From a virus, in the IMG/VR virus record IMGVR_UViG_3300044825_002278, positions 39,910 to 103,909 of that record: a stretch of DNA of 64,000 nucleotides. One strand, 5' to 3'. Every line of letters begins with the position of its first letter. Positions within the stretch are counted from its first letter, which is position 1. The notes beneath the pieces were generated by a model. It worked only from the letters and a program-made list of their open reading frames with translations. It was not told the origin of the DNA and searched no databases. This document shows positions 1 to 16,023 of the stretch, one piece after another. Made by a program: the position numbers and the translations under genes.

Positions 1-15
1 ACAAAGGATAAGCAA

Positions 16-69
16 ATGGAAAATAGTGTTGAACTTCTTGGTTATTATTTTTTAAAAAACAACATTTAA
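16..69 (+). pseudogene. Orphan 5' stub of thyX (MENSVELLGYYFLKNNI*), left upstream of the endonuclease insertion
   Basis: AAGGA RBS at 4-8 and ATG at 16. VELLGYY aligns with VELISYW at the start of the intact ThyX at 837. Confidence 0.7.
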
Positions 70-79
70 AGTCAAAATT

Positions 80-90
80 TGTGTATAATA
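80..90 (+). promoter_or_regulatory. Phage promoter-like motif TGTGTATAATA upstream of GIY-YIG/thyX
   Basis: Contains TATAAT; the same motif recurs in intergenic gaps on both strands. Confidence 0.6.
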
Positions 91-91
91 C

Positions 92-186
92 TATGGATAA
101 ATTCGCGGTTATCCATATGTAAACAAAATAACTTTACCCCCCTTTTGTTTGATGCCGCGAACATCTCCAATTGTGGGGGTTTTTTA
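92..186 (+). promoter_or_regulatory. Structured leader RNA: two hairpins with complementary loops and a terminator-like stem
   Basis: TATGGATAA/TTATCCATA stem (92-117) with loop TTCGCGG; GATG-CCGCGAA-CATC (151-165); ACCCCC/GGGGGT stem followed by a T-run. Confidence 0.55.
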
Positions 187-196
187 TTAAAATATT

Positions 197-844
197 ATGA
201 AATCAGGAATATATCAAATAAAAATAAACAATAGTTTTTATATTGGGTCTTCTAAAAATATTCAAAGAAGATACTGGGAACATTTATGGAAATTAAAAAA
301 TAAAAAACATCCAAATATCCATTTACAAAATTTGTATAATAAACATGGAGAAGAAAAATTTGAATTATTTATATTGGAAAGTTGCACAATAAATTGTTTA
401 ATAGAGAGAGAGCAATACTGGATTAATTTATTAAATCCAAATATAAACAAAGCACCAGTTGCTGGTTCAACATTAGGACTAAAATTAACAAATGAACAAT
501 GCAAAAATAGAAGCAAAAATAATATTGGAAGAAAACATTCTCTTGAATCTATCAAAAAAAGAACAGATAAAATAAAAGGTAGAAAATATACAGAAAAACA
601 CAGAGAAAATATATCTAAAAGCAGATTAGGTAAAAAACAAAATCAACAAACAATTAAAAATAGGGCAGAAAAAAATAAAAAACCTATTGCTTGTTATGAT
701 TTAAATTATATATTAATACGAATATACGATTCCGCTAAAACAGCGGCTTTAGAAAACAATTATCATGCAACAAACATAACAAGATGTTGTAAAAATAAAA
801 TTAAAACTTATAAAAACAAGATTTGGAGGTATTGGGATGGTTGA
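197..844 (+). CDS. GIY-YIG homing endonuclease with NUMOD3-like repeats and a C-terminal NUMOD1/HTH-like DNA-binding domain
   Basis: SGIYQI...FYIGSS...RY..H, EREQYWI, GRKHSLES / GRKYTEKHRENIS repeats, YDSAKTAA...NITRCC; very AT-rich. Confidence 0.9.
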   Translation: MKSGIYQIKINNSFYIGSSKNIQRRYWEHLWKLKNKKHPNIHLQNLYNKHGEEKFELFILESCTINCLIEREQYWINLLNPNINKAPVAGSTLGLKLTNEQCKNRSKNNIGRKHSLESIKKRTDKIKGRKYTEKHRENISKSRLGKKQNQQTIKNRAEKNKKPIACYDLNYILIRIYDSAKTAALENNYHATNITRCCKNKIKTYKNKIWRYWDG

Positions 845-1484
845 ACTTATTTCATATTGGGGCAATGATTTAATGATCGTTAACGCCGCTAGAGTATCTT
901 TTGGAAAATATAAAAATAAATTAGACGAGAAAGATAAAAAATTAATTAAATTTCTTAAAGAACATAAACACGTTAGTGTATTTCGTCATCCGCAATTACA
1001 ATTTAGGATCACATGCCCAATTTTTGTAGAAAGACAATTGTTTAAACATCAAGTAGGGATGTCTGCTAATAGTATATCCGGTAGATATGTTGACTTTAGC
1101 GATTCTTATTTTAGTTTTAAAGATGGGGAGTGGCGGAAACAATCAGCGAATTCTAAACAAGGAAGCTCTGGTCCGGTTTTAAATAATCTTCAACATAAAT
1201 GTACAAAAATACAAAATAGCGTAGTAGATATTTGTAAAAACGCATATAATGAATTATTATCTTTAGGCGTTTCAAAAGAACAAGCAAGAACTATACTTCC
1301 GCTATGTTTAAATACAACTTTTATTTGGACAGGTTCTTTATTATCATTTTTACATCTTTGGGAATTAAGATTAAAAGAAGATGCTCAACAGGAAACCAGA
1401 GAAATCGCTGTTAAAATGCTAGAGTTGGTCAAGGGCATCGAAGGCAATCCGTTTAAACATACGCTTGAAGCGTGGGGATATTGA
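837..1484 (+). CDS. thyX: FAD-dependent thymidylate synthase ThyX
   Basis: IVNAARVSF, HKHVSVFRH, RQLFKHQVGMSANSISGRY (RHRx7S-type motif), EQARTILP, LRLKEDAQQETR. Confidence 0.95.
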   Translation: MVELISYWGNDLMIVNAARVSFGKYKNKLDEKDKKLIKFLKEHKHVSVFRHPQLQFRITCPIFVERQLFKHQVGMSANSISGRYVDFSDSYFSFKDGEWRKQSANSKQGSSGPVLNNLQHKCTKIQNSVVDICKNAYNELLSLGVSKEQARTILPLCLNTTFIWTGSLLSFLHLWELRLKEDAQQETREIAVKMLELVKGIEGNPFKHTLEAWGY

Positions 1485-1882
1485 TGAAACTAAGAACTGG
1501 CGCACAGATAAAGAATTTTAGGCACGAGTCTGTGGATCTGTATAAAATTTCAAGAGGGTGCGATATGTGCGGGTATAACAAGCATCCATCTAGTCTTTGC
1601 TTTGATCATTTGCCAGAATATGAAAAATCTCCAGTTACTAAAAATGGTAATAACAACACTTGGATTGGTGGAGGAATGTATAATTTGTACAAAAAACTCT
1701 ATACCATAGATCAACTCATAGACGAAATTAAAAAATGCAGACTTTTGTGTCATAATTGTCATATGGAAACTACATACCCAAACAATAAACGGTATAAAGA
1801 CCAAACCGAGGAAAGAATATTTACTGTGCAAGAACTTGAAAAAAGATTGCGCGATTTTGAAGAAAACTTATTGGAAATATAG
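1484..1882 (+). CDS. HNH-family endonuclease-like protein
   Basis: CDMCG...LCFDH...KCRLLCHNCH; ATG overlaps the thyX stop (TGATG). Confidence 0.75.
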   Translation: MKLRTGAQIKNFRHESVDLYKISRGCDMCGYNKHPSSLCFDHLPEYEKSPVTKNGNNNTWIGGGMYNLYKKLYTIDQLIDEIKKCRLLCHNCHMETTYPNNKRYKDQTEERIFTVQELEKRLRDFEENLLEI

Positions 1883-1889
1883 ATAGAGG

Positions 1890-2552
1890 TTGACAATGCT
1901 AGTAATAGGTGATGTGCATGGAAAATACAATGATTATTATAATCTTGTAAAAGACGAAAAGTCTTCGTTTCAGCTAGGCGATTTTGGCTTTAATAACGCT
2001 TGGATAAATTTAGATTATTCTAGTTTAGATCCAAAAATGCATCGTGTTGGCCAAGGAAATCACGATCCTCACGATGTGCTAAATAAAGATATTAAGTATT
2101 GGACTGGTCGTTATGGGCCGGTTAAAGTTGATGGTCATAATATATTCTGGGTTGGCGGCGCGCTCAGTATCGATATGGTTTACCGTGTTGGCGAATGGAT
2201 GAGTAATCGTAGTGGACCAAAGACTTGGTGGGCAAACGAACAGCTTTCATACGCAGAAATGGAAGATTGTAAAAAGAAGTGGAAAAACAAAAAACCGCAA
2301 ATTGTATTTACCCACACCGCTCCAGAATCAATTATATTGCACAATTTTAATGGCAATAAAGGAGCAAACATAATGGATGCTTACGGATGGGGTTCTGGCT
2401 ACACTGACACAACAAGTCAATTCCTAGAGCATTTGTGGCGTATTCACAAGCCTGATTTGTGGATATTTGGACATTTCCACCGTTCTTGGACTCAAATTAT
2501 TGATGGAACAGAATTCCGATGTTTAGCAGAACTAGAAACTTTCAACTTATAG
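1890..2552 (+). CDS. Calcineurin-like metallophosphoesterase
   Basis: GDVHG, LGDFG, GNHD, THTAP and FGHFH motifs. Confidence 0.9.
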   Translation: MTMLVIGDVHGKYNDYYNLVKDEKSSFQLGDFGFNNAWINLDYSSLDPKMHRVGQGNHDPHDVLNKDIKYWTGRYGPVKVDGHNIFWVGGALSIDMVYRVGEWMSNRSGPKTWWANEQLSYAEMEDCKKKWKNKKPQIVFTHTAPESIILHNFNGNKGANIMDAYGWGSGYTDTTSQFLEHLWRIHKPDLWIFGHFHRSWTQIIDGTEFRCLAELETFNL

Positions 2553-2560
2553 AGGTAATT

Positions 2561-2875
2561 ATGATAAATCCATACGATATAATAAAAAGCATTTTGTCAG
2601 AAGAGGGTTTTTCAAATGAATTATTTTCGGTAAAAATCAAAGATACAATAAATGTAAAAATAGAACAAAAAGACGATAACTTTCTAGTGTCGTTTTTAGA
2701 TAATAAGCCGACAATAAAAGTAAATAAGTATATCTCGCTGTCGTTGACAGTAAAGTCAATCTTGCTCAAAAATAATGGCGGCGTTTTCCAAATTGATTAT
2801 TTCCCAGATATTCCTTTTAAATATAGTTGGATTTTTGGGGAAGATGACCAAGGAGATTCAAATGAATTACGGTGA
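2561..2875 (+). CDS. Hypothetical protein
   Basis: ORF with AGAGG RBS before ATG 2561; operonic. Confidence 0.7.
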   Translation: MINPYDIIKSILSEEGFSNELFSVKIKDTINVKIEQKDDNFLVSFLDNKPTIKVNKYISLSLTVKSILLKNNGGVFQIDYFPDIPFKYSWIFGEDDQGDSNELR

Positions 2876-3170
2876 AGTAATACAAAAAGAGATTAATGAA
2901 AAATACTCAAATAGTCCCCACAGAAAAAAACTAGCTGAAAAATGCTTGGAAAAGGCAAATGAATGGCTAGAAGCCAATAACCCAATTTCGACCAATCAAG
3001 ACAAAAAGAAAATCAAAAAAGAGTGCGCATCTTATATCAAAAAGAATGTTGATACTACAGAAGAAGAGCGGATTTACGGTTCTGTTTTGTTAATGATAAT
3101 TATGGGCGCAGTTGTGTCGTGGCTAATACAAAGATTATTAGACGAAATTTTTGACAAGGAACAAAAATGA
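2862..3170 (+). CDS. Hypothetical protein with one C-terminal hydrophobic segment
   Basis: AAGGAG RBS; SVLLMIIMGAVVSWLI. Confidence 0.7.
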   Translation: MNYGEVIQKEINEKYSNSPHRKKLAEKCLEKANEWLEANNPISTNQDKKKIKKECASYIKKNVDTTEEERIYGSVLLMIIMGAVVSWLIQRLLDEIFDKEQK

Positions 3171-5615: not shown

Positions 5616-5914
5616 GTTCCTACGAATTAAAATTTACAGAACTTTTAAAACAACACAACGAGTCGTTAAAAAAGGAAATAAAAGACGAGCCAAGAAAATC
5701 CTTACCTCATATTGCCGTACTGACTTTTAAAATAGATGTTAGAGAACTCGACAATGATGGTATAATGGGAGAATTTGTTTTAAGCGGGAATGAGCTTAAA
5801 AAATATGGCATGAGCAATAAAGCCCAAATTTTTGTAAAAGGGCAATCGGAAGCAGATTGTATTAAAAAAGTTAAAAACATATTGGAGAATATAGATGCAA
5901 GAGCCAGAAACTGA
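5612..5914 (+). CDS. Hypothetical protein
   Basis: ORF coupled to neighbours. Confidence 0.65.
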   Translation: MSSYELKFTELLKQHNESLKKEIKDEPRKSLPHIAVLTFKIDVRELDNDGIMGEFVLSGNELKKYGMSNKAQIFVKGQSEADCIKKVKNILENIDARARN

Positions 5915-14080: not shown

Positions 14081-14103
14081 TGATAGTTACATATACTAAA
14101 TAA
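14080..14103 (+). pseudogene. Orphan 5' stub (MIVTYTK*) of the exonuclease gene at 15004
   Basis: TAATG-coupled to the kinase stop; MIVTY parallels MLCTY at 15004. Confidence 0.6.
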
Positions 14104-14131
14104 TCAAAATAAATCCACTTATTGTTTATTT

Positions 14132-14179
14132 TGTGTATTATACTGTGTAACAATTACATTTTTTGCGAGATACAGTATG
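14132..14179 (+). promoter_or_regulatory. Promoter-like motif TGTGTATTATA plus a hairpin sequestering the endonuclease start codon
   Basis: ATACTGTGT (14140-14148) pairs with ATACAGTAT (14170-14178), with one G-U pair, covering the ATG at 14177. Confidence 0.6.
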
Positions 14180-15001
14180 AAACCAAGTAAAAAACAATTA
14201 CAAGATCAATTAAATCAGGGAAAAACACTGAAGCAAATAGCAGAATATTTCGGCAAGAAATCTGCGTCATCTATTAAAAACTGGTTATCTAATTATAATC
14301 TTATTTCTAATAAGGTTTGTAAGCCTTGGACAGAGGAAGAAGATAGGTTTTTGGTAGAAAATTACCCAAAGTATGGATATGAATATTGTGGAAAAAAACT
14401 TGGTAGATCAAAAGATTCGATATATCAAAGATGTCAAAAAATTGATATTTGTAAAAATAGTAAATGGCAATCTTTAGATAGGGATTGGCTTATAAAATGT
14501 TATGAGGAAGACAATTTGAGCATTAAAAATATAGCAAGTCAAATAGATGGTATAGAATTCTGGGATGTCTACGCGGCTCTAATACATTATGGAATAAAAA
14601 TAAACAAATCTGGCAAATACTATGGAAAAGATCATCATAATTGGTCTGGATATCAAGAAATTTCAAATACTCATTGGTTGTCAATAAAACAATCTGCAAA
14701 AAAGGGAAGGTCTAGAGAGATAGATTTTGATATAACTATAGAGGAAGCATGGGAATTATTTATAGGGCAAAATCGTCAATGCGCTTTATCTGGAGTAGAA
14801 ATTAAATTTTCTCCAACCGGAAGTAATAGGTATCAAAAAACTACAGCATCGTTAGATAGAATAGATTCTTCAAAAGGATATTTTTTAAATAATTGCCAAT
14901 GGGTTCATAAAAATATCAACATGATGAAACAATCTTTATCCGATAAAGAGTTCATAGATTGGTGTTCTAAAGTTTGTAATTACAATCAAGGTAAAAAATA
15001 A
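14177..15001 (+). CDS. Free-standing HNH/His-Me-type homing endonuclease with N-terminal HTH/Myb-like repeats
   Basis: TLKQIAEYFG, PWTEEEDRFL, CALSG...ASLDRIDSSKGY..NCQWVHKNINMMK. Confidence 0.85.
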   Translation: MKPSKKQLQDQLNQGKTLKQIAEYFGKKSASSIKNWLSNYNLISNKVCKPWTEEEDRFLVENYPKYGYEYCGKKLGRSKDSIYQRCQKIDICKNSKWQSLDRDWLIKCYEEDNLSIKNIASQIDGIEFWDVYAALIHYGIKINKSGKYYGKDHHNWSGYQEISNTHWLSIKQSAKKGRSREIDFDITIEEAWELFIGQNRQCALSGVEIKFSPTGSNRYQKTTASLDRIDSSKGYFLNNCQWVHKNINMMKQSLSDKEFIDWCSKVCNYNQGKK

Positions 15002-15003
15002 TT

Positions 15004-16023
15004 ATGTTATGCACCTACGTTCGCTCATCAAGCTATAATAACTATGACTATTGCGAGATGCAGTACTTCATTACTTATGTACTTGGACATACGTCAAGTT
15101 CTAATAAAAAAGCCCAACTAGGAACAATTGTCCATAAAGTAATGGAGTGTTTAGCGTCTTGCAAAAAACAACTTCAAGATAATCCAAATGAAAAAAGTTT
15201 GTTTGTAAATGATGATGCCTTGGGTAAAATAAATTTTACTCCAAAAACTCTATTTACAAAAGGTTTTGTATTTAAGCTTTTAGATCAAAGTTATGAATAT
15301 TATACATCGAATTGCACCCATAATTACATACCGGCAGATAAAAAGTTTTGTCGTGAATTAACTGATAGCGCTTTGAATTATAATGACGGACAATTTGACC
15401 CTAGAAATAGAAAAATCATAGATGCCGAACCGCGTTTTGATATACCAATAAACAAAGACTGGGCTAAATTTAAATATATGATTGGCGGTCAAGAAGTTGA
15501 GGGTCAATTAGCAATAAAGGGAACAATCGATCTTGTTACCGAAATTGAAGATGGCATTATAGAAGTTATAGATTGGAAAACTGGACAAAGAAAAAATTGG
15601 GCTACCGGAGAAGAAAAAACTTACGAAAAACTAATTGACGATCCTCAGCTTTTATTGTATAATTACGCTATCTCTCAACTTTATCCAAACTACGAACAAG
15701 CGATAATGTCGATATTCTTTATACGAGATGGCGGTCCATTTAGCTTGTGTTTCGATAAATCAGACCAAGAAAGATTCTTGGAAATGTTAGAAAAAAGATT
15801 TACAGAAATAAAAAATAATACAAAACCAAAACCATGTTCAGCAAATAGAACAAATTTCAAATGTACCAAGCTATGCGACTTTTACAAAAAGACTTGGCCG
15901 GGAACAAATGTTTCAATGTGTGAACATGTTGAAGAACATTTAAAAACTTTTGGTCATGATGCAACAGTGGAGAAATGTACAAAAGATGGACACAATATCG
16001 GATATTACCAAGCGCCGGGATAA
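15004..16023 (+). CDS. PD-(D/E)XK nuclease (RecB/AddB/Cas4-like exonuclease)
   Basis: SSSYNNYDYC, LGTIVHKVME, KGTIDLV, VIDWKTG, QLLLY, C-terminal Cys cluster. Confidence 0.88.
   Translation: MLCTYVRSSSYNNYDYCEMQYFITYVLGHTSSSNKKAQLGTIVHKVMECLASCKKQLQDNPNEKSLFVNDDALGKINFTPKTLFTKGFVFKLLDQSYEYYTSNCTHNYIPADKKFCRELTDSALNYNDGQFDPRNRKIIDAEPRFDIPINKDWAKFKYMIGGQEVEGQLAIKGTIDLVTEIEDGIIEVIDWKTGQRKNWATGEEKTYEKLIDDPQLLLYNYAISQLYPNYEQAIMSIFFIRDGGPFSLCFDKSDQERFLEMLEKRFTEIKNNTKPKPCSANRTNFKCTKLCDFYKKTWPGTNVSMCEHVEEHLKTFGHDATVEKCTKDGHNIGYYQAPG

Follow-up and report, generated by a model that had tools for sequence, protein, structure and literature searches.

A free-standing GIY-YIG endonuclease gene and a divergent thyX have probably displaced the resident thyX of an uncultured water phage

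Why should a short open reading frame (ORF) that mimics the start of thyX stand ahead of a complete thyX, with an endonuclease gene between the two? The question is raised by 64,000 nucleotides (nt) of DNA, here called the window, which make up bases 39910-103909 of a 103.9 kb record of an uncultured water phage. At one end of the window, all on the + strand, we found a stub (4-69) with an AAGGA ribosome-binding site at 4-8, an ATG at 16, 11 thyX-like codons (16-48) reading MENSVELLGYY, six unrelated codons reading FLKNNI and a stop at 67-69. It is followed by a junction filler (49-78, counted from the end of the thyX-like codons), a promoter-like motif, TTGTGTATAATACT, at 79-92, a leader with two hairpins (92-190), a gene of 215 amino acids (aa) for a free-standing GIY-YIG homing endonuclease (197-844), and a complete thyX, also of 215 aa (837-1484), which begins MVELISYWGND and whose ATG lies 8 nt inside the endonuclease ORF. 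An original prediction made on this DNA had described the stub, the promoter, the GIY-YIG ORF and the overlapping new start as they are, and had read them as an endonuclease inserted in the first codons of a single thyX with a rebuilt, recoded N-terminus. We consider another answer probable, namely that a mobile unit consisting of the leader, the endonuclease gene and a thyX of one family (type A) entered the thyX locus and displaced a resident thyX of another family (type B). The resident gene then remains as a ribosome site and 11 codons, and the incoming block runs from about position 79 to near the thyX stop.

The first evidence concerns the identity of the stub. Loci containing thyX were gathered by alignment-based scans of viral and metagenome contigs. 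Type A was defined as the family of the window's ThyX, a search with which returned 120 homologues at 67-100% identity, and type B as the family of the thyX found in syntenic relatives of the window, a search with which returned 120 proteins. Type-A proteins start MVEL... or M-x(1-6)-VEL[LI]S[HY][FWY]G.D, and type-B proteins start M..(.)VEL[LI]G[YH]YGSDEIIACSAWTSTSR. The VELLGYY of the stub occurred in 49 of 120 type-B starts versus 0 of 119 type-A starts and scored 27.9 bits on the type-B N-terminus profile versus 13.5 on that of type A; furthermore, the first residues of one type-B protein, P0170, are exactly MENSVELLGYY. These scores, the counts and the P0170 start identify the stub, by sequence comparison, as the 5′ end of a type-B thyX that was resident here; the working gene belongs to type A. 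The original prediction had taken the stub for what remains of the start of the resident gene, and this is borne out here, as is the continuous MENSVELLGYY-GSD gene that it expected in endonuclease-free relatives, of which P0170 is the exact case and the syntenic loci L092 and L093 offer close variants. The window's ThyX contains a Thy1 domain (PF02511, E 1e-43) and shares 35% identity with P0170 and 33-34% with the proteins of the syntenic relatives. At the site of the RHR motif (window 1044-1052, thyX codons 70-72), 119 of 120 type-A proteins have KHQ and 119 of 120 type-B proteins have KHR; solved ThyX enzymes have RHR (RHR(X7)S motif).

With only 11 codons to compare, the stub might be suspected of a chance resemblance, or of being an unrelated small ORF. 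However, it was the sole match of at least 15 bits to the thyX N-terminus profile in all six frames of the 64 kb window, it is identical to a real ThyX start, it sits where relatives start thyX, and similar stubs recur in at least six other loci. The resemblance is far beyond chance, and an explanation by coincidence, already contradicted by these observations, is hardly credible.

The second line of evidence comes from relatives that share the surroundings of the locus. In L001, whose positions convert to window positions by subtracting 1500, the gene order going towards the window is nrdB, a trypsin-like protease gene, a tRNA-shaped element and then the region of the stub, endonuclease and thyX. 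When the upstream protease was used to find syntenic relatives, four loci were recovered, L090-L093 (L090 and L091 are duplicates of L092), with aa identities to the window of 95% for NrdB, 77-79% for the protease and 73-75% for the downstream phosphoesterase, and with flanks at 84% nt identity. In these loci the endonuclease was absent and an intact type-B thyX lay at the matching position; in L092 and its duplicates this gene has the N-terminus M[QK]NKVELM.P.GYYGSDEII and begins where the stub does in the window, past the same tRNA-shaped element. Nucleotide similarity between the window and these relatives ends at L001 1394; it reappears only over the final ~100 nt of thyX and within the phosphoesterase gene, the sole match to L092 and L093 within thyX being window 1383-1487. 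The comparison of loci thus shows a history of replacement, type A over type B.

These findings bear directly on the idea that the endonuclease was inserted in the first codons of the same thyX together with a short recoded copy that restored the gene and destroyed the cut site. The stub and the gene do share VEL..Y and nine identical bases, and this idea does hold for a second cassette at 14081-16023 of the window, described below. At thyX, however, a type-B stub is followed by a gene whose body is type A throughout, type B stands at this site in the syntenic relatives, and endonuclease-free type-A genes already start MVEL, an observation that the original prediction had itself named as speaking against it. 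The explanation is improbable and already contradicted. We found no rebuilt N-terminus, as VELLGYY is absent from the type-A starts and the two genes are 35% identical; the element brings nearly all of a gene with it, and not a replacement 5′ end. The duplicated peptide is indeed encoded by a partly different sequence, but the cause lies in two gene families and not in recoding. The view that the endonuclease arrived with DNA keeping a complete, apparently functional thyX in place is retained.

The product of 197-844 matched PF01541 over residues 3-82 (E 4e-9) and PHROG 314, 'homing endonuclease' (E 9e-32). GIY at residues 4-6, YIG at 15-17, RR at 24-25 and the EREQYW and NLLNPN stretches are present, giving the GIY, YIG, Arg, Glu and Asn positions of the catalytic domain, and NUMOD3 motifs were found in related copies of the endonuclease. 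The gene is a separate ORF with its own ATG, outside any intron or intein. The thyX ribosome-binding site, GGAGG (825-829), lies within the last endonuclease codons, 7 nt upstream of the thyX ATG. Phage thy genes are classic intron hosts (PMC2988022), and it could be supposed that the stub is connected to the thyX behind it by an intron or a translational bypass. However, an Rfam scan of 1-3000 returned no group I intron or other family at a credible score, even at E up to 10, in agreement with the original prediction that neither an intron nor an intein is present. The flanks of the endonuclease belong to different thyX families, and joining them would fuse a type-B start to a complete type-A gene equipped with a GGAGG and an ATG of its own. 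In addition, the endonuclease ORF overlaps the thyX ATG, and in two other loci, L134 and L057, stub and gene are only 6 and 4 nt apart with stops between them. We regard splicing or bypass as very improbable.

If a mobile unit entered the locus, it should be recognizable elsewhere. A first single-protein scan of viral contigs gave relatives at 45-49% identity only, and among GenBank phages none exceeded 45% for ThyX or 35% for the endonuclease; therefore no cultured relative is at hand. L094, from an independent metagenome, encodes an endonuclease 95% and a ThyX 92% identical in aa to those of the window, in unrelated flanks. Nucleotide identity between the two was 26% over window positions 1-50 and 74% over 51-100, rose to 86-100% (mostly 92-96%) from about 100 to 1400 and collapsed past the thyX stop. 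The cassette common to both starts with the promoter-like motif at 79-92, which is conserved in L094, and the leader (92-190) is kept at 92-94% identity; the junction filler between stub and cassette is missing in L094 (alignment of window 1-210 with L094 1-195). The L094 stub, MPAGPNTVELIGY followed by a stop, differs from that of the window and is likewise type B. Inheritance of the stub with the cassette was considered for this pair and rejected: the stubs match at 15 of 21 nt and their N-terminal leaders differ, next to a cassette at 92-96%.

A third copy, in L096, has an endonuclease 95% identical in aa to that of the window in another genome context. When compared in 50-nt steps, the endonuclease region of L096 was 92-100% identical to the window, the first two steps of thyX were 92% and 88% identical, and the remainder fell to 74-90%, a drop-off that has the pattern expected of a co-conversion tract. 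The L096 stub, MKNIVKLL, is a third and decayed one. Related endonucleases (35-57% aa identity) lie directly upstream of type-A thyX in many loci. Junctions were read in 24 endonuclease-plus loci, and in every one of them the endonuclease stop overlaps the thyX ATG by 4-20 nt. Clear type-B stubs precede a related endonuclease and type-A thyX in L015 (MNNNNVELLGHYGND...), L087 and L103, and decayed stubs do so in L026, L030, L034 and L096. The decayed stubs were read by eye and are the weaker evidence; an automated local-alignment screen at a 99% threshold missed them and gave false positives in L010-L012.

The endonuclease family adjoined type-A thyX in 27 of 152 loci and was near type-B thyX in 0 of 80 (Fisher p = 5.8e-6). 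On a quick tree of 108 ThyX-A rows, 23 rows were endonuclease-plus and 12 changes were counted, of which well-supported branches make at least 6 unavoidable. The distribution on this tree is sporadic, as is characteristic of a mobile endonuclease. Degenerate endonuclease fragments were also seen ahead of type-A thyX, at ~3194-3496 in L130-L132, just upstream in L102, and within 260 nt upstream of the thyX ATG in L117 and L119; in all of these the surviving part is only that which overlaps the thyX ribosome site and start.

A different history could be drawn from some of these loci, in which two unrelated events took place: type A replaced type B by illegitimate recombination or horizontal transfer, leaving the stub, and the endonuclease was a later or hitch-hiking insertion. 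L057 (776-815) and L134 (3411-3500) have type-B stubs of 9 and 25 codons, respectively, straight ahead of type-A thyX with no endonuclease, and L095 has the endonuclease cleanly upstream of type-A thyX with no stub. Against this, the leader, endonuclease and thyX of the window and L094 form one block at 92-96% nt identity whose left edge lies just past the stub, and stubs precede three endonuclease lineages. Endonuclease remnants ahead of other type-A genes indicate that loss is common, which would therefore explain L057 and L134; their arrangement is probably a product of such loss, and together with the fragment loci they fit the usual cycle of gain, decay and loss of endonucleases. In L095 and L097 type-A thyX follows genes that are homologous to each other (E 8e-17), the L095 endonuclease lying exactly between the two, and these loci represent the stub-free 'home' arrangement. 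In view of the single block, the three lineages and the frequent loss, we judge two unrelated events to be unlikely.

Returning to entry of the mobile unit as one piece, we examined where its edges fall. In the window, the left junction follows the 11th codon of the resident gene. Of nine readable stubs, six (window, L094, L103, L087, L057 and L026) have their end no more than one codon away from ...G-Y-Y, with different sequences following; those of L015, L134 and L030 extend to about codons 13-22, counting from the Val of VELL. For the right junction, the window thyX was compared in 30-nt steps with L094, its closest type-A gene, and with L093, the syntenic type-B gene. The last 90 nt gave 73, 76 and 80% to L093 and 83, 76 and 80% to L094, versus 30-50% and 83-96%, respectively, upstream of them, and the last 21 nt matched L093 at 20 of 21 positions and L094 at 17 of 21. 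This suggests a right-hand crossover within the last ~30-90 nt of thyX, and the 3′ block common to both types (1395-1484), delimited by such 30-nt identities, is the probable junction. Any resident-derived part of the working gene would amount to these last ~30-90 nt at most, the body being type A throughout. The common C-terminal block reads ..REIA..ML.LVK.IEGNPFK.TLEAWGY and is ~80% identical between types A and B, versus 35% overall. Its treatment as a feature peculiar to this phage's chimera was rejected, because type-A and type-B proteins at large match it about equally well, at 25.4 and 24.3 of 37 residues.

Based on these junctions, a course of events can be proposed. During co-infection, the endonuclease would cut an endonuclease-free thyX near its 5′ end, and the break would be resected and repaired from the donor. 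As types A and B share no usable nt similarity outside the last ~90 nt, the right-hand crossover would be placed there, and type A would be copied in its entirety. The left end would be joined by microhomology or non-homologous joining just past GYY, stranding the stub. The carrier would probably be immune, the type-B sequence at the cut being absent from type A, and would retain a thyX. By analogy with described phage systems, we infer that the mechanism is intronless homing with marker exclusion combined with one-sided illegitimate repair (PMC2988022).

Several points weigh against this account. Cleavage, its target, the position of the cut and type-A immunity are predictions from sequence. 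The junctions between stub and cassette differ among the window, L094 and L096, and the stub is either a homology arm or a mere scar. The right junction rests on short comparisons below statistical resolution, and the shared C-terminal block could reflect functional constraint instead of recombination. With KHQ in type A and KHR in type B, equal function of the two types is an assumption. In addition, L057 and L134 also fit a replacement of thyX without any endonuclease.

In its boldest form, the proposal is that of a natural 'cleave and rescue' drive in phages, in which an endonuclease family that cuts type B is tied for good to type A, a non-homologous and cut-proof thyX by which the function is taken over. 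Together they would invade phages whatever the upstream DNA, by way of nothing but the conserved ends of the gene, and the stub would mark the cut and may act as a left homology arm. We put this forward tentatively, at somewhat less than an even chance.

The second cassette, at 14081-16023, shows that the window also holds a case much closer to the original prediction. It has a stub reading MIVTYTK followed by a stop (14081-14104), the motif TTGTGTATTATACT at 14131-14144, the same as at 79-92, and a candidate endonuclease ORF (14177-15001), two bases past which a restarted gene begins with MLCTYVRSSSY. A relative, G001 (complete, 148 kb), has no insertion and a continuous MIVTYIRSSSY... gene whose product is 87% identical in aa, and the stub shares 14 identical nt with the G001 gene. 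When the restarted gene was aligned with that of G001, the first 60 nt were 63% identical and the rest roughly 73-90%, the differences being mostly synonymous and leaving the protein nearly unchanged. This cassette fits the short, recoded 5′ replacement that had been proposed for thyX.

The motif TTGTGTATWATACT was found only twice in the 64 kb, at 79-92 and 14131-14144, against an expectation of 0.1, and two copies were reached in 0 of 100 shuffles. Both copies lie upstream of endonuclease or candidate endonuclease genes, and the motif may be a phage promoter carried by endonuclease cassettes. The leader behind the first copy (92-190) has a folding energy of -28.6 kcal/mol (z = -2.15), and its second hairpin, which is G+C-rich with a stem at 163-180 and a T-run after it, is terminator-like. 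The loops of the two hairpins, TTCGCGG and CCGCGAA, are complementary, and both hairpins are conserved in L094. Hairpins limit the expression of endonuclease genes in T4, and those of this leader could set a similar limit.

Directly 3′ of thyX on the + strand lies a second endonuclease gene, of HNH type and 136 aa (1472-1882; PHROG 3106 and 2255, both E 1.1e-13), so that two homing-type nucleases flank thyX. This gene is outside the shared cassette, because the similarity to L094 stops at the thyX stop, and no counterpart was found among the 248 thyX loci searched (L002-L089, L094-L173 and L176-L255). The matching position in L093 holds an unrelated ORF of 104 aa. Upstream, the tRNA-shaped element occupies L001 1366-1487, 17-138 bases ahead of the window start, and is conserved in L092 at ~5630-5715. 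It has a T-arm and a 7-bp acceptor with an oversized middle; ARAGORN called no tRNA there, and an exact-match scan with its 3′ half returned no match.

A full-text search of the phage literature retrieved general T4 literature only and no description of this layout. The free-standing endonucleases of T4, including SegF at gene 56, SegG at gene 32, SegH, Hef and MobE, act by intronless homing and localized marker exclusion (PMC2988022). As with the T4 Seg enzymes, the gene described here is a free-standing GIY-YIG gene beside, not inside, a conserved gene of nucleotide metabolism; it is sporadic, its flanks are co-converted, and the donor's allele of the neighbouring gene replaces the recipient's. 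In the T4 cases, however, the alleles are close homologues, exchange is homologous on both sides and nothing is left over (PMC2988022), whereas in the window an incoming gene of only 35% identity has taken the place of nearly the entire resident gene, and 11 codons are stranded as a stub at the left junction. The layout also resembles MobE in Aeh1 nrdA and MobA at T4 gene 39/60, in both of which the span of a conserved gene takes in an endonuclease gene but no intron (PMC2988022); those split genes work as two polypeptides, whereas at thyX the stub is a discarded piece with a complete gene after it. One-sided illegitimate repair, with homology on one side and the other junction at microhomology, has been proposed as a route of endonuclease elements to new sites (PMC2988022); that case is a laboratory construct with an intron, and the present alleles are natural and recurrent.

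A closer parallel in outcome is found in fungal mitochondria, where mORFs make gene hybrids in Allomyces macrogynus atp6 and in Glomus atp6, atp9, cox2 and nad3 (PMC3630166). In both settings the endonuclease gene travels with a divergent foreign copy of part of the host gene, the copy takes over and a native remnant persists untranslated alongside. The mORFs replace the 3′ end, often as an in-frame fusion to the host gene (PMC3630166); by contrast, the phage locus has a 5′ remnant, a replacement running from the 5′ end through almost the whole gene, and a separate upstream endonuclease ORF. The layout is also similar to that of the cleave-and-rescue gene drives, but is here natural, with an inferred immunity of the rescue copy. 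The synthetic drives of this kind, engineered in diploid insects, link a nuclease that destroys a needed gene to a rescue copy immune to cleavage.

On this reading of the locus, a homing endonuclease can carry an entire metabolic gene from one phage to a distantly related one, where a counterpart without homology to it is overwritten, and 'marker exclusion' is extended from allele exchange to the replacement of one gene family by another. The reading also accounts for small orphan ORFs in phage genomes that look like the beginnings of genes, by which annotation can be misled, and makes such stubs usable for mapping endonuclease cut sites from their sequence. For the I-TevI-like nuclease family, this endonuclease and the 5′ end of type-B thyX form a testable enzyme-target pair, and the two independent cassettes in one phage allow partial and whole-gene replacement to be compared.

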